Virus record (IMG/VR): IMGVR_UViG_3300025117_000031 | Coordinates: 32,001 to 96,000 of that record | Direction: 5' to 3' (one strand) | From: a virus | DNA length: 64,000 nucleotides | Shown here: one piece after another, positions 759 to 64,000 of the stretch | How the letters are laid out: each line of letters starts with the position of its first letter | Numbering within the stretch: the first letter of the stretch is position 1 | The notes under the pieces: generated by a model | What the model saw: the letters and a program-made list of their open reading frames with translations, nothing else | Databases searched by the model: none | What the model was told of the DNA's origin: nothing | Position numbers and translations under genes: made by a program

Positions 759-828
759 TATAATTAGGTTTGCTTTACAGAAACGAGAAATCATTGTATT
801 CCCCTAGTTAGTATAGAGCCTATATAAC

Positions 829-1116
829 ATGACTGTAGTCATTTTGCAAGCAATATTTATATTTGTTGGTATTTTCTTTACAGACTTTTTAAACGCATTA
901 TACGTTGCCGCAGTAGCAAAAAACAAAAAGTTCAGTGCAGCAACCTTATCTTTTGTTGTTGTCCTTGTTACTGGCTTGATAGTAATAGAATATACAAAGA
1001 ATCCGTGGTTTATTATACCAGCAGCGATTGGAGCTTTTTTTGGAACTCTTGCTTCGGGATATGTAAGAATCAACAAGCCAAAAGAAAAAGATTCTAAGGA
1101 GTCTGAGAATTCGTAG
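829..1116 (+). CDS. small membrane protein
   Basis: 95 aa with three hydrophobic segments. Confidence 0.65.
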   Translation: MTVVILQAIFIFVGIFFTDFLNALYVAAVAKNKKFSAATLSFVVVLVTGLIVIEYTKNPWFIIPAAIGAFFGTLASGYVRINKPKEKDSKESENS

Positions 1117-1486
1117 GAAACAGCTTATCTAATCTTTTCTGCAGTTCGGACTTCTTTAAAACAAGACCATTCATAAGCCTCGCCTTTGCCTTTCCTTTTC
1201 TTTTTTGGTCCTCTTGCCACTCGTTGATGAAGTTTAATACTCCAACACAGCTCGGACCATCCTCAGTTAATACGAATGGCACAATTTCGCATGACTTATA
1301 AAGTTCCAAGTCTGTAATTGCAAGGTGGCACTTAAGAGAGCCTAGACTTCTCCAGAATTTTCCATTTTCTTCAAATCTAGGGGAGATTCCTCCATTGGAA
1401 TATAAGAGAGTTTTTAGGTCTCTTATCTTCCAAATGGTTTTTTCTTCTGGCTTGTGTTTTACTTTATAGCGGGGAGAGGACTTCAT
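1094..1486 (-). CDS. hypothetical phage protein
   Basis: 130-aa ORF starting right after the vWA gene stop. Confidence 0.65.
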   Translation of the reverse strand: MKSSPRYKVKHKPEEKTIWKIRDLKTLLYSNGGISPRFEENGKFWRSLGSLKCHLAITDLELYKSCEIVPFVLTEDGPSCVGVLNFINEWQEDQKRKGKAKARLMNGLVLKKSELQKRLDKLFPTNSQTP

Positions 1487-1487
1487 C

Positions 1488-2702
1488 TTACTTCTTGTAG
1501 AGGAGGAGGGTGCCCTTCTTCAGCTTGCGATTAGCCGAAGTAGAAAGAATAAACAACTTGTAGTTCTTAAGGTTTCCAGGATGAACTTGAACTCTCTGAT
1601 GTTGCGGAATTCCAGCAAGAGTTCTTGCCTGGTCTCCACCATAAACCGCCCCTGTGGTTGAATCCATGATAAGAAAATCTTTTGTCTCTTGGACGGTTTC
1701 GCTCTTTGTCAGTTGATAGTAGCCTCGTCCCTTCGAGAAGCTGAGTCGGTGGGGAGTAAGCGAGAAGCTTTCTTCAACGAAATCCTTGATTGGCATATCC
1801 TTGTGAACGGCCCAACGATAGAAGTCTCCCGACAGATCGTCCAGTCTTTGGTTAAGAACCTTTGTGTTAACCTTGCTAAGGTCTGCTGAGAAGAAGTTTC
1901 TTACGCTATTGTTTCCCTTGCTGCGAGCCTCATAATAGTTGTCGTAACCTGTGGTGACGGACCTAGAAAGAACTTCCATCCCTCGTTCTGTTTGGTCCCA
2001 CTCTTGAATATTCCCCGGAAGGGCGCCAAACCGTTGAACGTAATGGGAATGACCACGAGGCACAGAAAAAACAAAGGTCCAGCGATCTGTTGCGTGTAGT
2101 TCGCCCATAAGCGAGGAGACTCTAGCAACAGAATATTGAGTTGAAGAGTTTTCTTCCCCGTCTGTAATAGTGATTACAAGAAAGCTATGATTTAGCTTGT
2201 CGGAGTAGAAAGAGTTTTTATATTCCTGGGCAACAAGACCCACCGCATCGCGAAGAGAAGTAGACGAACCGTTGGCGTCATAATCTCTTTGTGTAATGTG
2301 TTGAATCACTGAAGAATCAGAGGGAGGAACAAGAAGGCGAAGAGTCCGGTCAAAAGTATAGACCGACATAATCGTTCGCTGACCTGACTTTTGAGCTGAG
2401 CGCTTGATTGAATCAATTTGCTCATTAATTACTTGAATTGCCTTAAACCTCAAGCCTTGCATGGAACCAGAAGAATCCATCATAAGAGCAATGTGATTGA
2501 CGCATTCGGGCTTTGGAGGAGTTTTCTTCTTTGTGGGCTTGGCAGGCGTCTTTGCTGACGTCGCAAACGAAGCCTTTAGCTCTCGGTCTTTATGAAAACG
2601 CCTTGCGCGAATGCCAGTTGTTGAAATACAGCGATTCCCAGGCTCCGCTCCACAGACAGGACACTTAACGGACATGATTTCAGTTGCAGACAGACGTGAC
2701 AT
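1488..2702 (-). CDS. von Willebrand factor A domain protein with N-terminal zinc finger
   Basis: MIDAS motif DSSGSM, T..DA, ITDGEEN; N-terminal CPVC...C...H; RBS GGAG. Confidence 0.85.
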   Translation of the reverse strand: MSRLSATEIMSVKCPVCGAEPGNRCISTTGIRARRFHKDRELKASFATSAKTPAKPTKKKTPPKPECVNHIALMMDSSGSMQGLRFKAIQVINEQIDSIKRSAQKSGQRTIMSVYTFDRTLRLLVPPSDSSVIQHITQRDYDANGSSTSLRDAVGLVAQEYKNSFYSDKLNHSFLVITITDGEENSSTQYSVARVSSLMGELHATDRWTFVFSVPRGHSHYVQRFGALPGNIQEWDQTERGMEVLSRSVTTGYDNYYEARSKGNNSVRNFFSADLSKVNTKVLNQRLDDLSGDFYRWAVHKDMPIKDFVEESFSLTPHRLSFSKGRGYYQLTKSETVQETKDFLIMDSTTGAVYGGDQARTLAGIPQHQRVQVHPGNLKNYKLFILSTSANRKLKKGTLLLYKK

Positions 2703-2721: not shown

Positions 2722-4053
2722 TTATAGCAGATCTTCGACGTCTTGATAGTTGTCGTTATCCTTGGCGATTCCTTCGAACAGCTTAAAAAGCCAACCCTTG
2801 TGCTTTAGAATATCTGTTCCACTTTGACTTTCATATCTAACACAAACGCCCTCTCGAATGTGACGAGGATCGAGGGGATCTGGGCCTTGAGTAAGCTTTT
2901 CGCACTTTTCCAAAAGAGCATCGAAATTCCCATCATAGAAAAATGTCTCATAGACGTGTACAGTTTCGAGTCCCATCTTGTTACAGCGCTCGACGACTTG
3001 GCCCCAAGGCAATTCATAAACATCTCCGTCTTCATTTGTCTGCGTAATACGATAAATAAAAAGACGGTTCTGCTTTAGTGGGTCTTCTGCGTTGCAACCA
3101 TAGGTGTAAAGAATTTGTTCCCCATACTTCTTTGCAACAGAAGGCTCCTTGGTTGTAGAATGAGGAGGCATAATGGAGGCGCCGGTATCGGTAAAGCCGA
3201 CGATTTCTCCATAAATTGTTTCTCCCTTGCGAACTCCACAAGAAGAAAGAAGCTTATGATACTTCTCGCGGTAATTACCACCATGGAAAGGGTCCTCGAA
3301 AGTTCGCTCTCCGTGATTTAGAATTGTACGACGAGTCCCCGAAACGTAAGAATATTCCCTCTCTTCAAACTTGGGACCGCCAATCTTTTCGGCAACTCGA
3401 TTCCAAATTAGCTTTGGAAGAGAAAGCTCCTTGCGAGAAAAAGTGTAAGAAAATCGCATACTTGTGCCGTGGCACTTGGAAGAGATATGGATCAACGCTC
3501 CGACTGGAATTTGCCCAGAGCAGAAGCGAATTTGCTTAGTCTCAAAGTGTTCCTTAAACAAGGGATACTTCTTTTCCTTGGCAAGGCGCTTCTTCCAAAG
3601 AGAAGAAATCTTATTCTTATGCTTCTCGCTAGAAAGACTTCGCCGAGAAGCCTTTGGAATATACTTGAAGCAAACAGACTTTCCGTTCAGCTCCGTAAAG
3701 GTGTAGTTCTCGGAAAGAACGTCGGTCTTGATTCCGGTCCATTCAACAAAAGAAAGAGGACACCAAAATCCTTCGGAGATTTCTCCTCGGAACTTTTGAT
3801 CTCGAACTCGGCCATTCTTATCAAAATAACCACCCATCTTTTCACCAGTATCAGGATGGGTTTGATAAAGACGATTAGTAACAAGCATGTCCTTCGACAA
3901 AGCACCGTCGGAAGGAAAGAAGATTCCCATCTGTCCTTCTGAATTATCAAGTCCCACAACAACCTGATTACCAACGACAGTTGCTAGCTGCACCCTATCG
4001 GCATTGGGATGCTTGCGGACATTCTTCAGCGGGGCAATAATTGCTTGATACAT
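2722..4053 (-). CDS. ATP-dependent RNA ligase (DRB0094/Rnl2-like) with N-terminal OB-fold RNA-binding domain
   Basis: N-terminal VRKHPNADRVQL; motif I SKCHGTS, IYGEIVG, REGVCVR, LKHK; RBS GGAG. Confidence 0.85.
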   Translation of the reverse strand: MYQAIIAPLKNVRKHPNADRVQLATVVGNQVVVGLDNSEGQMGIFFPSDGALSKDMLVTNRLYQTHPDTGEKMGGYFDKNGRVRDQKFRGEISEGFWCPLSFVEWTGIKTDVLSENYTFTELNGKSVCFKYIPKASRRSLSSEKHKNKISSLWKKRLAKEKKYPLFKEHFETKQIRFCSGQIPVGALIHISSKCHGTSMRFSYTFSRKELSLPKLIWNRVAEKIGGPKFEEREYSYVSGTRRTILNHGERTFEDPFHGGNYREKYHKLLSSCGVRKGETIYGEIVGFTDTGASIMPPHSTTKEPSVAKKYGEQILYTYGCNAEDPLKQNRLFIYRITQTNEDGDVYELPWGQVVERCNKMGLETVHVYETFFYDGNFDALLEKCEKLTQGPDPLDPRHIREGVCVRYESQSGTDILKHKGWLFKLFEGIAKDNDNYQDVEDLL

Positions 4054-4067
4054 TTTATTCTCCAGTT

Positions 4068-4346
4068 CCCTTTCGAGACTTGAACCGTGAACTCCTTAGT
4101 TAACACAGCCGCTCGATTCCTGCCCAAGAGAAAGTTTCGTTTTGGCCGTAAGGCCAGAACCAGAGCTTTCTTGACAGCAGGCTATCCCCGCCAGGGCGAC
4201 GGTTCTTTTTATCGTCGTAGTATAAAACTTCGACATACTATTAAGATAGCACACGAAGTGGAATGTGTTGACTTTTTTGCAAATTCGTTGTTTCATCTGT
4301 CAGCATTCATGTTAACTAAGGAGTTCGTGGTTTAAGTCTCGAATGG
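4068..4346 (-). mobile_element. miniature non-autonomous derivative (MITE 1) of the tnpB element
   Basis: Internal deletion joins the first tnpB codons to the last ~105 nt of tnpB plus the right end; terminal inverted repeats ttcgagacttgaaccgtgaactccttagttaac / gttaactaaggagttcgtggtttaagtctcgaa. Confidence 0.9.
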
Positions 4347-4364
4347 TATGACAAAATTTACATG

Positions 4365-4393
4365 AGCATAACAGAAGTAAAAGAAGATGTCAA
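4365..4393 (-). promoter_or_regulatory. sigma70-type promoter TTGACA-17-TATGCT with extended -10 TG
   Basis: Minus strand TTGACA TCTTCTTTTACTTCTGT TATGCT; spacer start shared with promoters at 1-15 and 12325-12353. Confidence 0.8.
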
Positions 4394-5096: not shown

Positions 5097-5288
5097 ATGA
5101 ATGAGAATGAGGTTAAGGAATGGCTGTCGGCTCTTGCGGATGCAACACTTTTCTCGAATTCTGGGATTGACATGGAGCGTCTTGCAACAAATTTTGTTGC
5201 TGGAACTCTGTTTTTCAATCCGACATACGGAGGCAAGAAGTACGATAACGTCTTCGATAAACACTTCTTTGAGGCTCCAGAGGCATGA
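5097..5288 (+). CDS. hypothetical protein
   Basis: 63 aa, RBS GGAG. Confidence 0.65.
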   Translation: MNENEVKEWLSALADATLFSNSGIDMERLATNFVAGTLFFNPTYGGKKYDNVFDKHFFEAPEA

Positions 5289-5703
5289 GCGAAGAACTAG
5301 AAAAGTTAATATCCCCTTCGAGGCTTAAACCATGAACTCATTAGTTAACATGAATGCTCGATTCCTGCCCATGAGAAAGTTTCGTTCTCGCCGCAAGGCC
5401 AGGACCAGAGCTTTCTTGACAGCAGGCTATCCCCGCCAGGGCGACGGTTCTTTTTATCGTCGTAGTATAAAACTTCGACATACTATAAATAGAGCACACG
5501 AAGTGGAATGTGTTGACTTTTTTGCAAATTCGTTGTTTCATCTGTCAGCAGCCGTGTTAACTGATGAGTCTTGGTTAAAATCTCAAATGGTTTGGGATTG
5601 TATTCTTTTCGAAGAAGAAAAGAAGAAATCCGAAGATAAGCGCGAACAACTTCAAGCTCCTTCTCCCGAAATACCCTATTGGCAGGAAAACGAGAATAAA
5701 TAA
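5285..5703 (+). pseudogene. small gene interrupted by MITE 2
   Basis: ATGA overlap with the upstream gene; removing 5313-5590 restores a 46-aa frame MSEELEKLIFWDCILFEEEKKK...ENK*. Confidence 0.6.
5313..5590 (-). mobile_element. miniature non-autonomous derivative (MITE 2) of the tnpB element
   Basis: Near-identical to 4068-4346 with the same deletion junction; imperfect terminal inverted repeats. Confidence 0.9.
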
Positions 5704-11554: not shown

Positions 11555-12316
11555 TCAAGCGGGAAATTTACATCCGGCATCTTTTAAAAGCTTCACGACC
11601 TCAACATGGCCGTTTCCCGAAGCCCATAGGATGGCACGGTTGTCACCGGCCGTTGGATCAACCCTTTTGTCGGAAAGAAGAATCTTCAAGACCTCAACAT
11701 GGCCTCTTTCCGAAGCCCATCGGATGGCATAGTTGTCACTGGCCGTTGGATCAACCCTTTTGTCGGAAAGAAGAATCTTCACGACCTCAACATGGCCGTT
11801 TCCCGAAGCCCATTGGATGGCACGGTTGTCACCGGCCGTTGGATCAACCCTTTTGTCGGAAAGAAGAATCTTCACGACCTCAACATGGCCGTTTTCCGAA
11901 GCCCATCGGATGGCATAGTTGTTGTTGGCCGTTGGATCAACCCTCTTGTCGGAAAGAAGAATCTTCAAGACCTCAACATGGCCGTTTCCCGAAGCCCATT
12001 GGATGGCAAGATTGTCACCGGCCGAGGGATCAACCCTCTTGTCGGAAAGAAGAATCTTCACGACCTCAACATGGCCGTTTCCCGAAGCCCATTGGATGGC
12101 ACGGTTGTCACCGGCCGTTGGATCAACCCTCTTGTCGGAAAGAAGAATCTTCACGACCTCAACATGGCCGTTTCCCGAAGCCCATTGGATGGCACAGTTG
12201 TCATCGGCCGAGGGATCGAACACATCCATCGACAAAATTAAAGCCGCTTCCTTATCTTTGCCTTTGTTGCAAAGCTCCCAAAAAAGCCGCTCTCCTCTGT
12301 TGTGTTCTCTTTCCAT
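11555..12316 (-). CDS. ankyrin-repeat protein (7 repeats)
   Basis: Repeats of NxAIxWASxNGHVEVVKILLSDKRVDP. Confidence 0.93.
   Translation of the reverse strand: MEREHNRGERLFWELCNKGKDKEAALILSMDVFDPSADDNCAIQWASGNGHVEVVKILLSDKRVDPTAGDNRAIQWASGNGHVEVVKILLSDKRVDPSAGDNLAIQWASGNGHVEVLKILLSDKRVDPTANNNYAIRWASENGHVEVVKILLSDKRVDPTAGDNRAIQWASGNGHVEVVKILLSDKRVDPTASDNYAIRWASERGHVEVLKILLSDKRVDPTAGDNRAILWASGNGHVEVVKLLKDAGCKFPA
11591..12219 (-). repeat. seven near-identical 93-bp tandem repeats encoding 31-aa ankyrin units
   Basis: Unit starts at 11591, 11684, 11777, 11870, 11963, 12056, 12149. Confidence 0.93.
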
Positions 12317-12324
12317 TTCGGCCG

Positions 12325-12353
12325 AGGATAACAAAAATAAAAGAAGATGTCAA
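12325..12353 (-). promoter_or_regulatory. sigma70-type promoter TTGACA-17-TATCCT with extended -10 TG
   Basis: Minus strand TTGACA TCTTCTTTTATTTTTGT TATCCT; ankyrin ATG lies 8 nt after the -10. Confidence 0.8.
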
Positions 12354-12391
12354 TCCCCTACTGTATATTTTGAAAATGTTTCGTTAAGCTG

Positions 12392-19321: not shown

Positions 19322-19394
19322 CTCCGGGGGCAGGGGTCGAACCTGCGACCAACGGTTTAACGGACCGCTGCTACCGCCTCTGAGCTACCCCGGA
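19322..19394 (-). tRNA. tRNA-Asn(GTT)
   Basis: TCCGGGG/CCCCGGA acceptor, G discriminator, GCGGT-CCGTTAA-ACCGT anticodon arm (C33), GCAGG-TTCGACC-CCTGC T arm; no CCA. Confidence 0.88.
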
Positions 19395-21087: not shown

Positions 21088-21171
21088 GGCCAAGAGAGGG
21101 ATTCGAACCCCCGACGAGATTGCTCTTCCTGATTACGATTCAGGTGCCTTCGTCCACTAGGCTATCTTGGC
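21088..21171 (-). tRNA. tRNA-Thr(CGT) with a long variable arm
   Basis: GCCAAGA/TCTTGGC acceptor, CCTGA-ATCGTAA-TCAGG anticodon arm, variable region AA-GAG-CAAT-CTC-GTC, GGGGG-TTCGAAT-CCCTC T arm. Confidence 0.85.
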
Positions 21172-21826: not shown

Positions 21827-22672
21827 CTATTCTTTAATCCTTTCTTCTGCCACAAAGGGCAAACTGTCGCATTTAAACCCTGCAGCTCCTTTGTGACCGC
21901 CACCTCCATAAAAAGAAGCGACTTTGCTTACGTCAACATCTTTTTTTGGAGTGTACAAAGAAACATACCATTTGTTGTCCGCAGTATAAACAAAGTTACA
22001 CATTGCATCAAACTTTTCTTCATCCCAAACACTGTCAAAAAGTTGAGAAGTGTCTCGTCTATTACAAGCCACAAGACGAAGATTATTTAACGTTGTTGCA
22101 AAAGCATATTGTTTAATCATATCGAGTCGTTCTAAATCTTTATACGTCTGAATTAATTTACCTGTTTTATGAGCTTCTCTGAAATATTGGTTATCTTTGG
22201 ACGCTCTATATGTAAACAAGGCGTGCCAATCCTTCCTTTCATACTTATCAGCTTTGATAAAGTATTGAAATAATTCTACATCTTCGTGCCAAGAAAGGTC
22301 AAAAACATCGTAACGTCCGAGCAGACTTACACCGTAGGGAGTTTCTTCACCAGGAAAGAAATATTCCCAAGCTAATTCGCAAGCAGCTTTTCCGTTCATG
22401 CGAAGACCAAAGAAAGGACAATTCTTATATTTCTCTATTGCCGAAGAGTGATGGTCTATCCAAATAAAGTTTGTATTCTCTCTCAGCCAAAACATGTCTT
22501 CTTCGGGGAAGGAAAGGTCGACAAGAACAAAAGTTTCATTAGGAGTAACAGTATTTCTGTCGAAAGAATCCCCATAGTTCCAAGGAAATAACTCACAATC
22601 TGGATATCTGTACTTAACGATTTCAGACGAACAAATGCCATCAAAATCTACACCATGATAAAAACACTTCAT
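21827..22672 (-). CDS. DHH/DHHA1 phosphoesterase
   Basis: H..D.DG, VDLS, WIDHH, GGGGHKGAAGF. Confidence 0.92.
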   Translation of the reverse strand: MKCFYHGVDFDGICSSEIVKYRYPDCELFPWNYGDSFDRNTVTPNETFVLVDLSFPEEDMFWLRENTNFIWIDHHSSAIEKYKNCPFFGLRMNGKAACELAWEYFFPGEETPYGVSLLGRYDVFDLSWHEDVELFQYFIKADKYERKDWHALFTYRASKDNQYFREAHKTGKLIQTYKDLERLDMIKQYAFATTLNNLRLVACNRRDTSQLFDSVWDEEKFDAMCNFVYTADNKWYVSLYTPKKDVDVSKVASFYGGGGHKGAAGFKCDSLPFVAEERIKE

Positions 22673-22683
22673 TTTGCTATCCT

Positions 22684-23286
22684 TTACTCAGAAAAATAAA
22701 CGTCAAAGAATGTCTTTGCTTTTTTAGGAATTTCGAAAGAAGAAATAAACTTAGAAGGCATTGCATCAATTAAAGCTTTTGGATAATGTTTTTTAAGCGG
22801 AAACCCTACCTTATGCTCCATCATGTAAGTATAAGATAAAATATAGGCATTTGCTTCTTTTATATACTTCTCTAAATTCATATCTAGATTTCGTTCTATA
22901 AATATGTCTACAGTCATTTTTTCTGCGTCTAATTCAAGTTTTTGTATTAAGCATATGGCCTGTAAAAGTTTTCTTTTTGATAGCTTCTTTTCGTCATACA
23001 ACCACGCATAGAAGTCTATCAGACTTTGGTCTGCTCTTTCTAAAAATTTTGTATATTCTTTATTGGAAAACTCATATTGTAGAAAGTGAGAATATTCGTG
23101 TATAAAGCAAGACCTCCAAGAGAGCTTGGACGTTACAATTACTTTATCTTCTTGACAAAAATAAGCAGAAACTGGGGATTTATCCACGTAAATAAAGGTA
23201 GAATTCTTTTTTACGTGTTGGTAGCCTTTGCTTGCCAATACCTCCAGAGATTCGTTGTAGAAGTCATTAAATTTTCTATAATTCAC
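22684..23286 (-). CDS. putative zincin (HExxH) protein
   Basis: FIHEYSHFLQ with downstream ELDAE. Confidence 0.6.
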   Translation of the reverse strand: MNYRKFNDFYNESLEVLASKGYQHVKKNSTFIYVDKSPVSAYFCQEDKVIVTSKLSWRSCFIHEYSHFLQYEFSNKEYTKFLERADQSLIDFYAWLYDEKKLSKRKLLQAICLIQKLELDAEKMTVDIFIERNLDMNLEKYIKEANAYILSYTYMMEHKVGFPLKKHYPKALIDAMPSKFISSFEIPKKAKTFFDVYFSE

Positions 23287-24921: not shown

Positions 24922-25746
24922 CTAATCAATTGTAAATTTCTTCTCGAAAAAATCTCCACAATTACATTTCTCTTTGAAGTATTTTTTTGCATCCTCATTA
25001 AACCAATCAAAAATCCAATTATTAATAAGCTTTTCAAAAGTAGATTTGTCTAATCCGCCAAGACCTTCACAGTAATGCCACACTCTAATTTCCTTATTAT
25101 CAAAAGTAAAAAGTCTGTCATCGGACACAAACATTTTCTTTGTATATTGCCCCCAAGGTTTCTGTCCAGGCGCTGCTACAACGTTACCCTTTGCCCTTGC
25201 GTTATAAACGATTTTAGAGTCTTGATAGGGATGTTCTACAATGTTATATGCAAACCCATATTCTTTTTTCCAAACAACTTCATTTAATGCTCCTTGCTCG
25301 TTATATTCTTTATGCAAAGGTGCTAATTCTATTATTTTTCTTACGGCTTCTGGTGAAGTAAAACAAACGACATCGGCATTTAGGTGAGTTTCTTTGTCAG
25401 GAGAACAAACTCTAGGAGAAACATATTGATAAGGGTAACATAGTGTTGGTAAAATGTCAAAATTATCTTTTTCTAAAAACTCCTCTAATCTGCTGCAAGT
25501 TATTGTATCCGCACCAAGAAGAATAATTTTTTCATACCCCTTTTCAAAAAGTTGCAAAGCAATACTTAGCCTTGAAACATTTGCTCCGCCCGAAACATTC
25601 CAAAGAGACAAATCTGTTACATAAAACAAATCTATATCAGAATGAAAAGCAAGAAAGCTGTTTTTAGCGCATTCACCAAGTTTTTCATAGTTTTTACCGG
25701 AAGCTACAATTAGACAACAAGTCTTCAACACTTTGCTACCCACCAA
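24922..25746 (-). CDS. putative glycosyltransferase-like protein
   Basis: LGADT, NADV and EQGALN resemble GT-A motifs; cluster context. Confidence 0.5.
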   Translation of the reverse strand: MVGSKVLKTCCLIVASGKNYEKLGECAKNSFLAFHSDIDLFYVTDLSLWNVSGGANVSRLSIALQLFEKGYEKIILLGADTITCSRLEEFLEKDNFDILPTLCYPYQYVSPRVCSPDKETHLNADVVCFTSPEAVRKIIELAPLHKEYNEQGALNEVVWKKEYGFAYNIVEHPYQDSKIVYNARAKGNVVAAPGQKPWGQYTKKMFVSDDRLFTFDNKEIRVWHYCEGLGGLDKSTFEKLINNWIFDWFNEDAKKYFKEKCNCGDFFEKKFTID

Positions 25747-35085: not shown

Positions 35086-36584
35086 TATCCAATATAGGTT
35101 TTTCTATATTTATTGTTTTGAATATTATCTTGAGAATAATAAGAATCCTCTTTGATGTGAGTCGTGGACAATTCTTCTACAACGCAGCCTTTAGGTCCAG
35201 CGACAAACCAGTGCTTAGTATTCGGCTCAATAGTAATCATGTCGCCAACGGATAAACTGTGATTTACATTATCTAGATAAACTCGCAACTCGCCATATAA
35301 AACAAAGAAAGTTTCTTTTTTAACCTTATGAGTATGCTCAGGATGAAGCTGATTTGGTAAGCTTATTAAGTATTTTTTGCAGTATGTATCGTTAATTGCT
35401 GTAAGCATAGACAAACCGTAAGCTTCGAAATTCTCCATTCCGCCATGATGGGAAAGCTCTAGAGCTGCATCTGGAGGAACAACAATATGAGAAGCGAGAA
35501 CCAAATCTCTGATTTTTCTTACGGATGTAAGTATTTGTTCTCTTTCATCTTTATATTCTATATCAGAAAAAAGCAAAGGGGCATTTTTTAAAATAGTTCC
35601 TTTTGTAATTATAGAAGCATACTTTGACATGTCGTTTGCTAAAACTTGGTCTTCCATGTTGGGAAAAGCGTAAAAAACATCATTTCTTGTAATCTTATCC
35701 CCAGCTAAGACATCTCTTTTTAAATAAGCACCCCTCTTAAATGTTCTTAAATCTTTTTGTTCTTTTTCGGAATAAACTCGATTCTTAGAGCCTAAAGAAG
35801 TTTCTGTTTTTGCTGCATTGGTTAACCACCAAGCAATTTGCTGTGGAGTTGAAGAATAAGAATTTGGTAACGATACATATTCTGTTGGCAAAGCAACGTG
35901 TCTCTCGAAGATAGATGCTCCAAGCGCCATAGCAATTGATACAGGAAGAAGATTTTCTGGCTCTTCGTGTGTTGAAAATCCAATTCTTGTAGAATATCTT
36001 TTCTTTAATTCTGAAATTTGATTAAGCTGTAAATCGTTATTAGACGTTGGGTAAGAGCCAACACAATGCATAAGAGACAATTCTTTGCTTCTGTTGGAAA
36101 AGAATGTAAACACCTTATGAATATCTTCGTAGGAAGAGCCAGCCGTTGAAGCAACAATAGGAATGTTTTTTTCTGCTATTGTATTTAACAAAGGCCAATC
36201 TGTCAAAGAACAGCTCGCTATCTTGATATAATCAAACTTCATTTTTTCTATTATATCAACAGAGGCTTCATCAAAGGCGGTACAAATTGTTTTAAACCCG
36301 TGATTTTCTGCTCTTTCTTTCATGTTTCGGAAAGCAGCTTCGGGAAGAAAAGTTTCGTTAAATCTGTTAACATACTTAATATCATTACGGTTTTTATATT
36401 CTGGATGAATAAAAGTCTCAGGGTCTCTCATCTGAAACTTAAAGGCAAAATCAAATTGAGGAAACTGCTTTATGCAAAAAGCGAATGCATCTATTATATC
36501 ATAGCCGTGGCTTACAATGCCCTGATGGTTATTCGCCATTTCAAATATAAACAGTTTTCTTACATCTTCCATTTTGTTCTCCAA
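35070..36584 (-). CDS. NeuB-family PEP-dependent sugar synthase with SAF and C-terminal cupin domains
   Basis: EMANNH.G, KFQ, KIAS, HCVGSYPT, GFSTHE, ERH; cupin HPEHTH..KKETF. Confidence 0.85.
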   Translation of the reverse strand: MENKMEDVRKLFIFEMANNHQGIVSHGYDIIDAFAFCIKQFPQFDFAFKFQMRDPETFIHPEYKNRNDIKYVNRFNETFLPEAAFRNMKERAENHGFKTICTAFDEASVDIIEKMKFDYIKIASCSLTDWPLLNTIAEKNIPIVASTAGSSYEDIHKVFTFFSNRSKELSLMHCVGSYPTSNNDLQLNQISELKKRYSTRIGFSTHEEPENLLPVSIAMALGASIFERHVALPTEYVSLPNSYSSTPQQIAWWLTNAAKTETSLGSKNRVYSEKEQKDLRTFKRGAYLKRDVLAGDKITRNDVFYAFPNMEDQVLANDMSKYASIITKGTILKNAPLLFSDIEYKDEREQILTSVRKIRDLVLASHIVVPPDAALELSHHGGMENFEAYGLSMLTAINDTYCKKYLISLPNQLHPEHTHKVKKETFFVLYGELRVYLDNVNHSLSVGDMITIEPNTKHWFVAGPKGCVVEELSTTHIKEDSYYSQDNIQNNKYRKTYIGYWRNA

Positions 36585-37297: not shown

Positions 37298-37581
37298 TCC
37301 TTTACGTTAATCGCCTTATCGTCAATAAAAACATCGTAATAGGGTTTATTAAACTTTAGCTTCGTATACTTCACTCCCCAATATTTTAGTTGATTTTTTG
37401 TAACCTCTTGCCAGTTAATTCCCGTTAAAACTCCTCTAGATGTCCAAAAAACAATAGTGTTTCCTTCTTCGTACAGTTTGTTGACTTTTTTTATGTTTGT
37501 CTTTATCGGAGAGCTTTTGCTGTAGTCCCCGTTTTTGGGAGATTTGCATATTGTTTTGTCAATATCTATATAGATTATCAT
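37288..37581 (-). CDS. small HAD-like phosphatase (capsule-biosynthesis type)
   Basis: DIDKTI, WTSRG, KP.YD.FIDDKA. Confidence 0.8.
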   Translation of the reverse strand: MIIYIDIDKTICKSPKNGDYSKSSPIKTNIKKVNKLYEEGNTIVFWTSRGVLTGINWQEVTKNQLKYWGVKYTKLKFNKPYYDVFIDDKAINVKDWK

Positions 37582-38474
37582 AATGATAAAAACTTCTTTA
37601 CACGGCAAGTGTAAGTATGATTTTCTAGAACATTCTTTTTATTTTCTTGTTTGATTTCAAGCAGATTGGAGTCTGACATAAAACAATACTCTCTTGCATA
37701 GTCAATTAGCTGTTCCGTATTCCTAGAGGTTTTCACATCAGGGAAGAGACGTATAAGTTGTTTAATAGAATCACTTATCAATATTCCGTTAGCCCCAAGA
37801 GATTTAAAAGTTCTTTCATTTGTGTCAAATCCTAAAACTCTCTGATAAGCATCATGAACATTCAAAGCTACTTTGGAAGATTGTAATATGTAGTTTTCAT
37901 CATAGTTAGGAATATTTTGACCAATAAAAATACCACATCTAAGACCAGAGCTTTCAAATCTCTGCTTAACCTCTTTTAAAATATGCCTTTTTTCATCAAA
38001 GCCATTATTTGCCCATCCTCCAACAAAACAAACATCTAAATTATATTCTTCAACATCTAAACTTCGATAATTGATGTTATCAAAGGCTAGTGGAACTGTG
38101 TGTAATGGACTTCCCCAATTTCCATGGTAACTAAAATCGTCTCCGAAGCTCCATTTTACTAAATTTGGTAAATCTTTAATTTTATTAATTAAATCGACAG
38201 AGCAGGCAGAAATAAAATTAGGATGTCTTCCCCATGGCATATAAAAAGAAACAGGTTGTACAAAAAGAAAAGTCTTTCTGGAATTTTCTAAAGTACAAAT
38301 TGCAGATTCTTTCACATCTCCGTCTACAGCCATTAGATAATAATCTTTATCTTTTATGTCTTCGAGATTTTTGTATAAGCAAACCTCATAGCCCAAAGAT
38401 TTCCAAGCATTAGCATATCCTTCATAGATCCACAGTCCTGCACCAAGAGTAGGAACTTTAATATACACCTTCAT
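37578..38474 (-). CDS. glycosyltransferase (CgeB/GT1_2-like)
   Basis: FVGG, SKVALN, NERTF, HTY..R. Confidence 0.8.
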   Translation of the reverse strand: MKVYIKVPTLGAGLWIYEGYANAWKSLGYEVCLYKNLEDIKDKDYYLMAVDGDVKESAICTLENSRKTFLFVQPVSFYMPWGRHPNFISACSVDLINKIKDLPNLVKWSFGDDFSYHGNWGSPLHTVPLAFDNINYRSLDVEEYNLDVCFVGGWANNGFDEKRHILKEVKQRFESSGLRCGIFIGQNIPNYDENYILQSSKVALNVHDAYQRVLGFDTNERTFKSLGANGILISDSIKQLIRLFPDVKTSRNTEQLIDYAREYCFMSDSNLLEIKQENKKNVLENHTYTCRVKKFLSL

Positions 38475-39389: not shown

Positions 39390-40231
39390 TATAGTTCTTT
39401 CTTAAAAAGAGAAATCGCATATTCTTTTTTGTTCTTCATTTCTTGAATTATTTCTTCTGGTTGTTTTATGTACCAAGGTTCATAAATTGCGCCTATGTTT
39501 TCATTCAAGAAGGGAACAACTCCCAACATCTTCGCTTCAACAACGACTCTAGAAAGAGTTTCTGGAGTTTTAGGCAAAAACATTAAATATTTATTCCAAG
39601 AGATTCTGATAAGTAAGTCAGACCAAGCACAAGGCTTTATAAGAACAATAGGTTCTCCTTTATTCATGCACCTGTCAATTGCCTCGTTAGTGTTTTTGTG
39701 GGCAATAGGAGAAATTAAAATAGATGTCGCCTCTTTCTTTTTATGTATTGGAAACTGTTCGTTTAAACTCTCAATCACTTCGAAAGCGGCATCGTGCCAC
39801 AGATTTCCGCCCAACACAACAAAATTAGACAAATTTAAGTTTTTGTAGATAATGTTTCTTTGAAAAGTCGACTGGCATAGAACAAAAGCGGCGTTCTTAT
39901 AGAATTCTAAATTAATAATATCTTTTGCTGGAACTATGAAATCTTTGTAAAGAGCTGGGTTCCTACTTTGGAGGAACTTGTAATCATGTTCGATAATAAA
40001 GTATTTACAAGGAACATTAATTTTGTCTTCTTCTGTAAGAAGAGCGAAATTGCCAAAAATGATACGGTCATAAGGGGTAAGAGAAGATTTAATTCCCGAA
40101 TAGGAGGAGGATTTTATTTTCTCTACAGAATACCCTGAATTTCTCAGTTCCTCAATTAGAACATCATTCGAGGCTTCTCCGCCACCGGGGTATTCTTCAT
40201 AAAAAATATCTGCTACAAAATATATGTTCAT
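39389..40231 (-). CDS. GT-B glycosyltransferase-like protein
   Basis: GGGE near the N-terminus; PETLSRVVVEAKMLG (E-X7-E). Confidence 0.7.
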   Translation of the reverse strand: MNIYFVADIFYEEYPGGGEASNDVLIEELRNSGYSVEKIKSSSYSGIKSSLTPYDRIIFGNFALLTEEDKINVPCKYFIIEHDYKFLQSRNPALYKDFIVPAKDIINLEFYKNAAFVLCQSTFQRNIIYKNLNLSNFVVLGGNLWHDAAFEVIESLNEQFPIHKKKEATSILISPIAHKNTNEAIDRCMNKGEPIVLIKPCAWSDLLIRISWNKYLMFLPKTPETLSRVVVEAKMLGVVPFLNENIGAIYEPWYIKQPEEIIQEMKNKKEYAISLFKKEL

Positions 40232-42390
40232 TTTTTTAAAGCCTTTTCTACCATTTCACCGACTAATTCTTCAAAAGAAATCTCCGGATACCATCCGAGC
40301 TTATTGTGAGCTTTTGTACTGTTGCCAATTAAAACATGAACTTCTGCAGGACGATAAAACTTTGGGTCAATCCTAATGTGTTCTTCGTAGTTTAATCCAA
40401 CGCAGTTAAAGGCTTCTTTACAAAAATCACGAACAGAATAACAAGTCTCAGAAGAGATAATGTATTCTTCTGGAGTCTCTTGTTGAAGCATCAAATACAT
40501 TGCCCGAATGCAGTCCTTCGCGTGACTCCAATCTCTTTTAGCTTCAAGATTGCCAAGATACAAAAAATCTTGTTCATTGTTAGATATCTTTGCAACTGCT
40601 TGTGCAATTTTCTGAGTAACAAAATAAGGTCCGCGACGTTTCGATTCGTGGTTCATCAATATGCCCGAACAGGCAAACATATTATAAGATTCTCTATAAT
40701 TTATAGTAAGATAGTGACCATAAACTTTAGCTACACCATAGGGAGAGCGGGGATGAAATGGAGAATTTTCGTCATATGGAACACCGCCAGATAATCCTCC
40801 GAGCATTTCGCTGGTTGAATTTCCGCTTATTGCTGTTTTGCCGTTTCTTTCAATTAAGAAGTTATGATTATCTTTTATTTCCAAGCACCACACGTTTCCT
40901 TTATATTCAACCTCAGAGATCATATAAGAGTACAACTTGTTCTTTGGAGAAAAACTAACATTAATGTAAAATGCTTCTTTTGTAGATTTTATTTCCCGTA
41001 CTTTGTCTCCTTCTTTTATATAACTTTTCGTTAATCCAACGTTCTTAATAGAAGGATGATACCCGCATTTTTTTATAAGAAATAAAAGTTGTGAAGCCAA
41101 AATACTTGATACTGTGGTGATAGAAGCCCTTTCCCCAGACTTAGTTTTTCTTTCCGAACCATCTGAGTCTATTACTCCTTGCAATAGGGCTCTTAAATTA
41201 CCGACGGAATAAGAAAAGGCAAAATCTGGTATTTGTTTTTCATAAACATTTTTCCCGCATAAAGAAAATATTTTCGAAAGAGGCAAGCTGGTTAAAGTTA
41301 TTGTCATTTTTTGTTTTGAATATTCTAGCTTGTTCTTATCTAAAATTTTCAATAAAGAACTTCTGGCGGGATCTTTTTCGGGTATCGCAAAAAGAATGGT
41401 ATGAGAAGTTAAATATCTTTCTCCAGTGGTCGGAGGAGTCCCTTCAAAATTAAATTCAGCCGTGTAACGACCTGTTTTTTTATCTCTTCTTTTTTCATTT
41501 TCTTTAAATGGATAACTTCTTAGTTTTTTACCAGAAGCCTTATATCCGTCTCCAATATATAAACCAAGTAAATAAAAAAGGTCTTTTGAAGGCAAAGAAG
41601 TGATCAAATTCTTATGAAAACAATTTGGTACAGAGAGTTCTTGTAATGGTACGAGATCAGATAATTTAATATTTTCCTTTTTATCTTCCAACTGTGGAGT
41701 AATAAAGGGCATGCTTAGATGACTTTTTCTTTCAAAAGAAAAAAGATTCTTTATATTTTCTGCTCTACAACTAACAATGTTATTATTGTCATCTTTAAGG
41801 ATTACTCTGTGGTTTGGTGTAATTAGTTGTGAAATTCTTTTCCCCTCTAAAGAAATCATCTTTCCATCATAGGGAAATTTATATATTTTTAGTATTTGTT
41901 TTTTTTCCATTTGATGAGTTTGTTCATTAAAAGAAAAAACATCGTCTCCAACTTTTAATTCGGTGAACGGCTTTATCCCCGAAGGGGTTACAACGTTGGT
42001 TTTTTCGTCATGACACGCTTGATAGAACTTAGTTTTTTTCTCGTTACCACTTTGTCTGATGGACTCCAAACAATTCAGAACACCAGCCCCTGTGGCACTT
42101 AAGGTATGAAATGGTTCTTTAAAAGATGTTCCAACTTCTGATTGGGCGGCAAGATTATACATCTCATCGGGAGAAATGGACTTAACAAGAGAAATCATTG
42201 AAGATAAATCTGTTACATCCCCCTCAACAATTTCAAAATTCTTTTCCCCAACAAGATGAGACACATTTCCAAGACCATTCGAACTGGTTCTTCTTTTTAA
42301 TCCATAAACTTTATAGTCTTTTTCTAAAAGAAGTTCTGAGAGGTAGGAACCATCTTGTCCTGTTACTCCGGTAATCAAAGCCTTTTTCAT
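40228..42390 (-). CDS. gmd: GDP-mannose 4,6-dehydratase with intein
   Basis: ALITGVTGQDGSYL, NLAAQS.V, FYQA|STSE split by the intein, PRSPYGVAK, NHES..RG..FVT.KI, LGNL.AKRDW. Confidence 0.95.
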   Translation of the reverse strand: MKKALITGVTGQDGSYLSELLLEKDYKVYGLKRRTSSNGLGNVSHLVGEKNFEIVEGDVTDLSSMISLVKSISPDEMYNLAAQSEVGTSFKEPFHTLSATGAGVLNCLESIRQSGNEKKTKFYQACHDEKTNVVTPSGIKPFTELKVGDDVFSFNEQTHQMEKKQILKIYKFPYDGKMISLEGKRISQLITPNHRVILKDDNNNIVSCRAENIKNLFSFERKSHLSMPFITPQLEDKKENIKLSDLVPLQELSVPNCFHKNLITSLPSKDLFYLLGLYIGDGYKASGKKLRSYPFKENEKRRDKKTGRYTAEFNFEGTPPTTGERYLTSHTILFAIPEKDPARSSLLKILDKNKLEYSKQKMTITLTSLPLSKIFSLCGKNVYEKQIPDFAFSYSVGNLRALLQGVIDSDGSERKTKSGERASITTVSSILASQLLFLIKKCGYHPSIKNVGLTKSYIKEGDKVREIKSTKEAFYINVSFSPKNKLYSYMISEVEYKGNVWCLEIKDNHNFLIERNGKTAISGNSTSEMLGGLSGGVPYDENSPFHPRSPYGVAKVYGHYLTINYRESYNMFACSGILMNHESKRRGPYFVTQKIAQAVAKISNNEQDFLYLGNLEAKRDWSHAKDCIRAMYLMLQQETPEEYIISSETCYSVRDFCKEAFNCVGLNYEEHIRIDPKFYRPAEVHVLIGNSTKAHNKLGWYPEISFEELVGEMVEKALKK
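40819..42015 (-). other. 399-aa intein with LAGLIDADG endonuclease, in Gmd
   Basis: Starts CHDEKT, block B ITPNH, LLGLYIGDG and LQGVIDSDG, ends VWCLEI.DNHNF...ISGN before Ser. Confidence 0.92.
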
Positions 42391-42659
42391 TTTGTCTCCA
42401 TATGTTATATATATAACGACTTCAGCTGCTTCTGCCTCAACTTCTATTTAAAAGAGAAAAAATCCTCGACAGAGGTCTCGGCAATGTCTTTTCTTCTAAC
42501 GAAGAAAATATAACATCGACAGAAGTCGTTTTAATTCTATCATATTTTTGATGAAACTTAGACAAGAAAAAGAAAAAAGATATAACATGTTGAAAAGATG
42601 AAGAAAAACAGTAGAAGAAAGAAAGATGTAACATATATATAATATATATTACCAAGAGA

Positions 42660-44043
42660 TTTGGAACTTAAACTGTTAACCTCTCAGTTAAAAGAATTTA
42701 AATCTTCTCTTCTTATTAAGAACAACGAATTTACAAAAAAATCAACACATTCTACTTCGTGTGTTATATTTATAATGTGTCGAAACGTCATTCTACAACT
42801 TCTGAAAAAAGCCTCCCTATAACTATCCTCAGCCAACGTATTCGGCTCGTTCCAAATAACATCCAAACAACCTTTTTCGAACGTTGTGCCGGTGCGTCTC
42901 GTTTTGTCTACAACTGGGGATTGGGCCGTTGGAAAACTCAATACGAAGCTGGGGGGAAGCCCTCTTGGATTAGCCTTAACTCCGAGTTGAATGCCTGCAA
43001 AAACACCGAATTTCCTTGGATGGCAAAATTGCCGTGGGCTGTTGCTGCAACGGCATTGTCCAATCTCGGCAATGCTTTCTCCAACTTCTTTCGTCGTGTT
43101 AAGTCTGGCCAAAAGCCCGGTTATCCCCGTTTCAAGTCGAAGAAGCGGAACAAAGCAGCCTTTGCCATCGAGGGACGAGCCCTTCAGTTTGACGGCAGAA
43201 GAGTCAAACTCCCCAAGCTTGGTTGGGTCCGCACCCGACAAGAGGTAAGATTTCCTGGTAAAATCCTGTCCGCTCACTTCACGAAACATGCCGGTCATTG
43301 GTACGTCTCGATTCAAGTTCAAGTCTCCGACTCCTGGTCCTATCCCCATCGCTGCGAAACCCAAGAAGCGGTTGGAGTGGACCTTGGGCTCCGAGACCTT
43401 GCCGTGCTCTCCACGGGAGAACGGGTCGGGGCTCCACGCATTCTGCGTGCTCATGAAACCCGACTGCGACGACTCAACAAGGAAATGTCTCGTCGCGTCA
43501 TAGGAGGGAAGAATTGGCAGAAGACCAAAATGAAGCTTGGTCGGCTGCATGAACGGATTTCCAACATCCGCAAAGACGTAACGCATAAGCTTACCGCTCG
43601 GCTGGTCCGAGACTTTCGTCGGATTGGAATCGAGGACTTGAACGTCAAGGGGATGATGGCAAATCACCATCTTGCAAAGTCGGTTGCAGATGCTGCCTTG
43701 TCGGAAATCAGGCGTCAGCTCACGTATAAGGCTCCGCTTGCCGGCAGCGAAATCATCGTTGCTGACCGCTGGTTCCCTTCTTCCAAGCTGTGTTCCGACT
43801 GCGGAACAAGACGAGAAGGACCGTTGCCCTTGTCCATCCGAGAATGGGTTTGTGAGGCTTGTGGGGTTGTCCACGACCGAGACATCAACGCAGCCATTAA
43901 TCTTAGAACCGCCGCCCTGGCGGGGATAGCCTGCTGCCAAGAAAGCTCTGGTTCTGGTCTTGCGACCAAAACGAAACTTTCTCTTGGGCAGGAATTGAGC
44001 AACCGTGTTAACTAATGGGTTCATGGTTTAAGTCTCGAAGGGG
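42660..44043 (+). mobile_element. tnpB-only insertion element, full-length copy A
   Basis: GC-richer than the flanks; right end ...gttaactaatgggttcatggtttaagtctcgaagggg shared with three other copies; left end is a degenerate inverted repeat, so the left boundary is approximate. Confidence 0.85.
42777..44015 (+). CDS. tnpB: TnpB RNA-guided endonuclease
   Basis: N-terminal G.SRFVYN.GL, YPRFKSK; RuvC VGVDLG, IEDL, DRDINAAINL; zinc finger CSDC..CEAC; GTG 42777 corresponds to ATG in the MITEs. Confidence 0.95.
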   Translation: MSKRHSTTSEKSLPITILSQRIRLVPNNIQTTFFERCAGASRFVYNWGLGRWKTQYEAGGKPSWISLNSELNACKNTEFPWMAKLPWAVAATALSNLGNAFSNFFRRVKSGQKPGYPRFKSKKRNKAAFAIEGRALQFDGRRVKLPKLGWVRTRQEVRFPGKILSAHFTKHAGHWYVSIQVQVSDSWSYPHRCETQEAVGVDLGLRDLAVLSTGERVGAPRILRAHETRLRRLNKEMSRRVIGGKNWQKTKMKLGRLHERISNIRKDVTHKLTARLVRDFRRIGIEDLNVKGMMANHHLAKSVADAALSEIRRQLTYKAPLAGSEIIVADRWFPSSKLCSDCGTRREGPLPLSIREWVCEACGVVHDRDINAAINLRTAALAGIACCQESSGSGLATKTKLSLGQELSNRVN

Positions 44044-44084
44044 AACTATAACACAAGCCTAATTAGTGTAAGAGGAAAAGATCG

Positions 44085-63661: not shown

Positions 63662-63670
63662 TCTAATTAT

Positions 63671-64000
63671 CCCCTTCGAGACTTAAACCATGAACTCCTT
63701 AGTTAGCACAGTTGCTCGATTCCTGCCCATGAGGAAGTTTCGTTCTGGCCGTAAGGCCAGAGCCAGAGCTTTCTTGGCAGCAGGCTATCCCCGCCAGGGC
63801 GGCGGTTCTAAGATTAATGGCTGCGTTGATGTCTCGGTCGTGGACAACCCCACAAGCCTCGCAAACCCATTCTCGGACAGACAAAGGCAACGGTCCTTCT
63901 CGTCTTGTTCCGCAGTCGGAACACAGCTTGGAAGAAGGGAACCAGCGGTCAGCAACGATGATTTCGCTGCCGGCAAGCGGAGCCTTATACGTGAGCTGAC
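63671..64000 (-). mobile_element. tnpB: second tnpB element (copy B): 3' part of tnpB plus right end, truncated by the window
   Basis: Reverse complement nearly identical to ~43714-44043. Confidence 0.92.

Follow-up and report, generated by a model that had tools for sequence, protein, structure and literature searches.

A tnpB-only phage element of probable IS607 ancestry whose right terminal inverted repeat overlaps a hairpin of its predicted omega RNA

How does a nuclease gene without a transposase come to lie between long terminal inverted repeats (TIRs), and what are those repeats? The question is raised by a tnpB gene in a 64,000-nucleotide stretch of viral DNA, referred to here as the window, which comprises bases 32001 to 96000 of the linear, 153,920-bp IMG/VR record IMGVR_UViG_3300025117_000031 (85% complete). 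Sequencing runs containing about 95% of the sampled words of this record stem from several studies, in which metagenomes of groundwater or soil were sequenced. The element, copy A, is a tnpB-only unit of 1390 bp at window positions 42655 to 44044 on the forward strand. A preliminary description of the window placed it at 42660 to 44043; the start is corrected here to 42655, and the final A at 44044 is part of the element. That description took copy A for a member of a distinct TnpB-carrying family, mobilized in trans by some recombinase. We favor, at a probability of roughly 0.6, a reading in which copy A descends from the IS607 lineage and lives in phage genomes as a non-autonomous TnpB/omega-RNA element.

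Copy A is not alone. A blastn search of the whole record with copy A found four full and four miniature copies, the latter called MITEs here (for miniature inverted-repeat transposable elements; Table 1). The right-end motif occurs five times in the window and not once in 100 shuffles. A second viral contig (G001, 55.6 kb) carries one full copy, placed at the terminus of the contig, as well as a MITE that lacks the left arm; apart from the repeats and tnpB, synteny between this contig and the virus record is absent.

The ends themselves are clearly defined. Every right end runs to ...CTCGAAnGGGA, and similarity among the copies ceases after GGGA. All seven copies in which both ends are present start with an inverted copy of their last ~48 bases. 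Local scores between left and right ends in inverted orientation were 14 to 33 in these seven, versus shuffle maxima of 11 to 16; in direct orientation they were 7 to 10, which is the level of chance. Left ends matched the reverse complement of the right ends at 40/48 positions in the full copy F4, 37/48 in MITE 1, and 34/49, 32/50 and 31/48 in further copies, and when the left-arm consensus is aligned with the reverse complement of the right-end consensus, 41 of 53 positions agree. Copy A and the first full copy have more degenerate left arms than the other five, with copy A giving the weakest inverted match (score 14; shuffle maximum 12). No target duplication of 2 to 8 bp was found in the seven at any plausible boundary offset, nor was a flanking TA seen. 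Since seven insertions in different flanks have the repeats in common, the repeats belong to the element and are not pre-existing target palindromes. The preliminary description thus read the ends correctly: it had reported inverted repeats of ~40 bp (here ~48 bp), a degenerate left end in copy A, clear inverted left ends in the two miniatures of the window (those matching at 37/48 and 34/49), and no visible target duplication.

The two arms do not appear to be equivalent. The right arm is, as far as can be judged from covariation, the terminal stem-loop of the omega RNA (right-end RNA). For the scaffold of ~140 nucleotides (nt) we aligned 23 sequences: ten phage copies, seven solo relatives, and six relatives linked to a serine TnpA. 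The consensus fold has 35 pairs, 30 of them with compensatory changes, and 94.1% of the cells pair. Its covariation score of 0.52 compares with 0.21 in shuffled alignments, none of 500 of which reached it, and with 0.09 to 0.12 when the partners were slid; the consensus structure shifted by one column, an unplanned negative control, also scored poorly. The last three helices (6 to 8), which are 87 to 99% paired with 12 of 13 pairs compensated, use the same bases as the right repeat arm, so that conservation of this arm is explained by RNA function. The scaffold ends at the element boundary, where the copies stop being alike. No omega-RNA family in Rfam matched at gathering thresholds; only two tRNAs did.

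The left arm, in turn, is an inverted copy of the terminal hairpin of the scaffold, found only in this subfamily. At the loci of relatives with TnpBs 62 to 76% identical, plus one at 55%, the best inverted matches stayed within the shuffle range. Because relatives at 60 to 76% identity show no significant long TIR, the long inverted repeat is an innovation local to the subfamily of this phage. RNA function accounts for one half of the TIR pair, the right arm. Mean pairwise identity is 0.655 for the left arm among the resident copies, 0.874 for the promoter block (all seven copies; the block is retained in MITEs), 0.924 for the 5′ part of the scaffold, 0.872 for the right arm, and about 0.91 for the body of tnpB. 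Left-arm divergence is at least as large as the synonymous divergence (dS), consistent with drift at about the neutral rate, and for this reason the left arm is not under selection in place. This fits either a fossil or a site used solely while the element moves. When folded as DNA, one left end (genome 97000 to 97058), belonging to the second full copy, forms a perfect palindrome with a 15-bp stem (−16.6 kcal/mol); the other six left ends fold weakly on either strand (−1.5 to −5.6 kcal/mol). The boundary of this second full copy is abutted by the ATG of a neighboring gene of 595 amino acids (aa) on the opposite strand, which looks baseplate-like, judged on its N terminus alone.

The protein encoded by copy A looks like an intact nuclease. 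It matches the Pfam families OrfB_IS605 (1.4e-28), Cas12f1-like_TNB (1e-20), and HTH_OrfB_IS605 (3.7e-13) and aligns over its full length with solved ISDra2 TnpB structures (E 1e-73). Translation probably starts at 42777, given an ATG at the same position in the MITEs. Residues D208, E292 and D375 and four zinc-finger cysteines are invariant among 28 relatives. All four full copies have open frames with the GVDLG, IEDLN, and HDRD motifs and two CxxC motifs intact, so that the three RuvC acidic residues first noted in copy A are present as a D-E-D triad throughout. Pairwise ratios of nonsynonymous to synonymous divergence (dN/dS) are 0.11 to 0.21 among the four full copies, at dS of 0.21 to 0.37, suggesting that the tnpB paralogues are old and under purifying selection. 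Public assemblies called, in place of tnpB, an open reading frame (ORF) of 446 aa without a Pfam hit that runs antisense to it (window 42684 to 44024, reverse strand). This ORF is most likely an artefact of the G+C richness of tnpB (54%, versus ~36% around it).

Where does this TnpB come from? A search of 5.8 billion proteins yielded hundreds of TnpB relatives at 60 to 76% identity, and every context fetched for these was a solo tnpB in a phage-like contig, mostly from groundwater, with terminase, ParB, and small unknown genes nearby. Transposases appear only farther out. At 170 more distant loci, the upstream neighbors fell into two clusters, one of MerR-type helix-turn-helix (HTH) and Resolvase proteins (the serine TnpA of IS607 type) and one of Y1_Tnp (Pfam names). 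All transposase-linked relatives scoring above 268 bits (41 to 48% identity) are serine linked, with Y1-linked ones beginning at 38%. A tree of 75 TnpBs built with FastTree places the clade of the window (support value 100) inside a branch of 42 rows (support value 96) that includes 14 serine-linked rows and no Y1-linked ones; all 27 Y1-linked rows are in the other branch. The scaffold aligns with those of serine-linked loci. These relatives have left flanks in ...GGG and right ends in ...ACGG, which is the IS607 rule. By neighbor typing and the tree, this is a TnpB of the serine-linked (IS607) lineage. The phylogeny had been suggested as a check on the idea of a distinct TnpB family and, together with a scaffold that aligns with covariation, it speaks against that idea, nesting the protein in the IS607-type branch rather than in a family of its own.

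Among the relatives at 62 to 76% identity we also saw a ribbon-helix-helix ORF of ~55 to 80 aa that overlaps the tnpB start and lies behind a TTGACx-N17-TATxxT promoter (for example L034:2268-2507, L250:1340-1504, and L033:676-837). Most close relatives have such a small ORF with a good sigma-70-like promoter upstream of tnpB; the copies of this phage are without it.

The absence of a transposase from copy A, already remarked on in the preliminary description, extends well beyond the element. Only ~120 bp lie upstream of tnpB within copy A, and neither a Y1_Tnp nor a Resolvase match was found in the 153,920-bp record, 85% complete as it is. A pattern search of viral contigs for a parent with the same ends returned 32 hits, about the number estimated for chance, none of which adjoins a tnpB or resembles a MITE. 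Because the element is without its own transposase, it has moved in trans if it has moved at all. To this extent the earlier proposal of mobilization in trans stands, but the ancestry is probably of IS607 type.

The flanks offer some hints about targeting. The two bases just 5′ of the left end, in register with the repeat, are in turn C in six of seven copies and A in all seven (P of about 3e-4 and 2e-4, respectively, given the base composition of the genome). This YCA motif seems to belong to the flank rather than to the element. The left flanks contain no GG, and the right end is ..GGGGA. A serine-type dinucleotide common to both junctions was considered and rejected, as AW agrees in four of seven copies, which is the level of chance. 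Right flanks vary among the copies. By analogy with the TnpB/omega-RNA architecture, for which a guide taken from the flank is established (PMC8612924), the right flank may act as the guide. Each right flank matches its own locus only, and no predicted guide matches another place, as expected for guides aimed at the unoccupied version of their own site.

Such an unoccupied site was looked for in several ways. In four runs, over a 20-kb stretch with four MITEs, no groundwater contig skips an element; Logan contigs break at the repeats. Exact look-up with a flanking gene of 792 aa gave 13 contigs, and those read at the site all carry the insertion. A search of viral contigs with flank proteins found only relatives at 27 to 33% identity, and G001 is not syntenic at the flanks.

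Three observations at the junctions stand by themselves. When MITE 2 is removed at its predicted boundaries, an ATG at 5286 is brought into frame with the sequence following 5592 to give an uninterrupted ORF of 45 codons (window 5286 to 5703); with MITE 2 in place, an ORF of 123 aa (5332 to 5703) starts inside it. No homologue of the restored 45-aa peptide was found. The element of one relative, L034, is flanked by a perfect 13-bp direct repeat (L034:2229-2241 and 3725-3737), which could represent either a duplicated target or a relic that resembles a guide. In a comparison of eight relatives, the sequence near the left end is slightly more like the right flank of the same element than like those of others, a weak effect (permutation p = 0.038).

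The MITEs retain exactly the last ~140 nt and ~120 nt of the left end. All of them, including the 5′-truncated copies, have one deletion junction in common, at which the promoter block and the first ~10 codons are joined to the scaffold. Given this single junction, the MITEs form one lineage, which has spread to at least five loci across two phage genomes. Two MITEs, one in this genome and one on G001, are left truncated within the promoter spacer, with the −10 region and the scaffold retained. The MITEs, in which both promoter and scaffold are conserved, are best read, on sequence grounds, as stand-alone omega-RNA genes; stand-alone omega RNAs that act in trans have already been reported (PMC10691335). 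The promoter itself is a candidate, recognized by its consensus match (Table 1). Another such site, TTGACA-N17-TATGCT (10/12), lies at window positions 4365 to 4393 on the reverse strand, immediately beyond the left end of MITE 1, and points into it; MITE 1 thus separates this site from the ribosome-binding site of the gene at 2722 to 4053.

How might a non-autonomous element of IS607 ancestry maintain itself in phages? We imagine that TnpB would bind an omega RNA in which the 16 to 20 nt of the right flank serve as the guide, and that it would cut the unoccupied allele in co-infecting phages, with YCA as the transposon-adjacent motif (TAM) and the right-flank sequence directly after it. The element would then be copied into the cut allele by recombination, that is, by homing. 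MITE RNAs could use TnpB in trans to home to their own sites. For other elements, both homing by TnpB (PMC10055086) and stand-alone omega RNAs that act in trans (PMC10691335) are established. Insertion at new sites would instead involve a recombinase acting in trans, provided by the host or by another element, that recognizes the module common to both ends and joins them to the target without duplication. This is the simplest reading for new sites, and the hints as to the class of the recombinase conflict. Phylogeny suggests a serine enzyme, although the flanks do not follow the GG rule; the pattern of the flank motif suggests a Y1 enzyme, although the ends are inverted and the Y1-linked TnpBs distant; the symmetric ends suggest a DDE enzyme, although there is no duplication.

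Several points count against this picture. Neither an empty site nor an excision product was seen, and the boundaries, the TAM, and activity are predictions. The left junction departs from the rules of IS607, since the flank ends in YCA and not GG, and no dinucleotide is common to both junctions. The promoter match is weak: copy A reaches 9/12, and the MITEs fall short of the scan threshold. The part missing from the record, which is 85% complete, could hold a transposase. Finally, the copies differ by dS of 0.2 to 0.37, so that any movement may lie far back in time and the ends may by now be fossils.

If the ends are fossils, the left arm would have no role in movement. It would be a relic from the origin of the subfamily, when the right end was duplicated once in inverted orientation, and later spread would be due only to homing or recombination between phages plus rare illegitimate events. 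An arm that evolves about as fast as synonymous sites agrees with this, as do the two copies that have lost the left arm and still keep promoter and scaffold, and the relatives at 60 to 76% identity that manage without a significant long repeat. However, the first base of the arm and the flank motif before it are the same in all seven insertions, which lie at unrelated loci, and the monophyletic MITEs still had the arm as they spread to at least five loci across two phage genomes. Both would be hard to obtain without an end-specific reaction, and we regard a purely fossil arm as unlikely. One can also envision that no dedicated transposase is needed and that TnpB or its ribonucleoprotein processes both ends, because both present the same ~48-bp module, the terminal hairpin of the omega RNA; together with the recombination machinery of the phage, this would move the element to sites after YCA. 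We think the existence here of such a self-mobilizing RNA-guided nuclease element very improbable.

Two known classes of transposase acting in trans were also considered, neither of which we favor. If the repeats were binding sites for a cut-and-paste DDE transposase, as in IS630-linked TnpBs and Fanzors, their length, terminal position, and symmetry would follow naturally; DDE-linked and solo TnpBs with inverted terminal repeats are published (PMC10691335), and so is a TIR inside a right-end RNA scaffold (PMC10711439). Against a DDE enzyme are the lack of a 2- to 8-bp duplication and of a flanking TA in seven copies and the position of TnpB in the serine-linked branch. Moreover, the ORFs upstream and downstream of tnpB at the 170 related loci formed Y1 and serine clusters only, with no DDE cluster among them, although the phage genome itself was not scanned for DDE or tyrosine recombinase families. 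DDE action seems quite improbable to us. The flank pattern is accommodated if the copies are members of IS200/IS605 comparable to IS1341 or to palindrome-associated transposable elements (PATEs), moved as single strands by a Y1 (HUH) TnpA in trans, with a hairpin near each end and insertion 3′ of a short motif. A motif at the left flank only (YCA), a variable right flank, and no target duplication are what such insertion leaves (PMC4810608, PMC13565253), the MITE derivatives resemble PATEs (PMC3119063), and one copy has the perfect 15-bp palindrome at its left end. Yet the similarity of the ends is inverted and not direct, the left ends of six of the seven copies form weak hairpins, Y1-linked TnpBs lie in the more distant branch (38% identity or less), and the virus record holds no Y1 gene. 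We judge a Y1 origin of the insertions to be quite unlikely.

A non-autonomous IS607-type element, as we propose, would be an unusual member of its group. With IS607 elements such as ISXfa1 and IS1535, the phage copies share the branch of TnpB, an omega-RNA scaffold that is homologous column by column (the terminal stem-loop included), the lack of a target duplication, and a G-rich right end (..GGGGA in the phage, ..ACGG in the IS607 type). They differ in being without tnpA. IS607 elements have a short imperfect inverted repeat near their ends (PMC6188088), placed at unequal distances from them, whereas the repeat of the phage element is terminal and ~48 bp long. The TAM and target of IS607 are GG(G) (PMC10711439, PMC6188088); in keeping with this, the left flanks of the serine-linked relatives that we fetched are GGG, as opposed to YCA in the phage.

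Other mobile systems show likenesses of a different kind. As with the IS1341-type solo TnpBs and the PATEs or stand-alone omega RNAs of IS200/IS605, the tnpB-only unit is ~1.4 kb long, occurs as several diverged copies per genome, has miniatures that keep the ends and the guide-RNA region, and is next to a short motif at the left flank only; unlike them, it has inverted rather than direct ends, no stable hairpin at most left ends, and a TnpB from which the Y1-linked ones are more distant. Published cases of symmetric ends include DDE (IS630)-linked branches and the solo TnpBs that share these ends (PMC10691335), and in Fanzors a TIR has been described that lies within the scaffold of the guide RNA (PMC10711439). 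The phage element resembles these DDE-linked TnpBs and Fanzor1/Fanzor2 in its symmetric ends, in a right TIR lying inside the guide-RNA scaffold, and in occurring in virus genomes, but it is without a target duplication or TA, belongs to a different TnpB clade, has no DDE gene next to any relative examined, and lives in a bacteriophage and not in a giant or insect virus. The free-standing homing endonuclease genes of T4-like phages are likewise intergenic nucleases at gene boundaries in a lytic-type phage, present as several paralogues, and expected to spread by cleavage of the empty allele in co-infection (PMC13565253). In the phage element, by contrast, targeting would be RNA guided, and there are defined ends and noncoding miniatures.

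Each part taken alone is of a kind already known, be it TnpB, the omega RNA, the stand-alone omega RNAs, or the relatives bounded by TIRs. What is new is the combination of a bacteriophage TnpB of IS607 lineage, a terminal repeat of ~48 bp derived from inversion of its own RNA hairpin, no duplication, a flank motif other than GG, and selected derivatives that carry the guide RNA only. With four tnpB paralogues under selection and four guide-RNA genes that stand alone, all with defined ends, this single phage genome is a compact test case for how tnpB-only (IS1341-like) elements spread without a transposase. Duplication of a guide-RNA hairpin of the IS607 lineage has produced a symmetric element in a prokaryotic virus, the same solution as in the Fanzor transposons of eukaryotes. 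A nuclease of ~412 aa with eight natural guide contexts is also well suited to TAM and homing experiments.

Table 1. Copies of the element in the virus record and predicted features of copy A
Feature	Window position	Genome position	Strand	Basis or remark
Full copy		782-2172	-	blastn of copy A
Full copy (copy A)	42655-44044	74655-76044	+	blastn
Second full copy in window, 1389 bp	63670-64000	95670-97058	-	blastn; 3′ part in window, runs past window end
Full copy		146622-147998	+	blastn
MITE		22572-22854	+	blastn
MITE without left end		about 25400-25552	+	blastn
MITE 1, 282 bp (left arm, promoter, omega scaffold)	4067-4348	36067-36348	-	Arms match 37/48
MITE 2, 281 bp	5312-5592	37312-37592	-	Arms match 34/49
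Left-flank motif, CCA in copy A, YCA in general; candidate TAM or target motif	42652-42654		+	Seven-copy comparison
Left inverted-repeat arm of copy A, degenerate	42655-42702		+	Aligns to reverse complement of right arm
Promoter-like site, TCAACA-N17-TATATT, then TATAAT	42742-42776		+	Consensus scan, 9/12 with a TG
tnpB coding sequence, ~412 aa; GTG start 42777, frame open from 42759	42777-44015		+	Pfam
Predicted omega-RNA (right-end RNA) scaffold, over last ~36 tnpB codons	43905-44044		+	Segment kept in all MITEs
Right inverted-repeat arm, predicted terminal stem-loop of scaffold	43997-44044		+	Consensus-structure helices 6-8
Predicted guide segment (right flank)	44045-44064		+	Known TnpB/omega-RNA architecture

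Some features of the surroundings deserve a brief mention. Arrays of ~93-bp tandem units (window 11588 to 12355; genome 1 to 373, 27781 to 28284, and 31638 to 32017) are 90 to 96% identical between this phage and the otherwise non-syntenic G001, and long ORFs overlap them on both strands. The two tRNA genes recognized by Rfam are at window positions 19322 to 19394 and 21088 to 21171 on the reverse strand. To the left of copy A is a gene of 720 aa (window 40228 to 42390, reverse strand); the precomputed Pfam matches of an identical protein mark it as a GDP-mannose dehydratase/epimerase interrupted by an intein with a LAGLIDADG domain.

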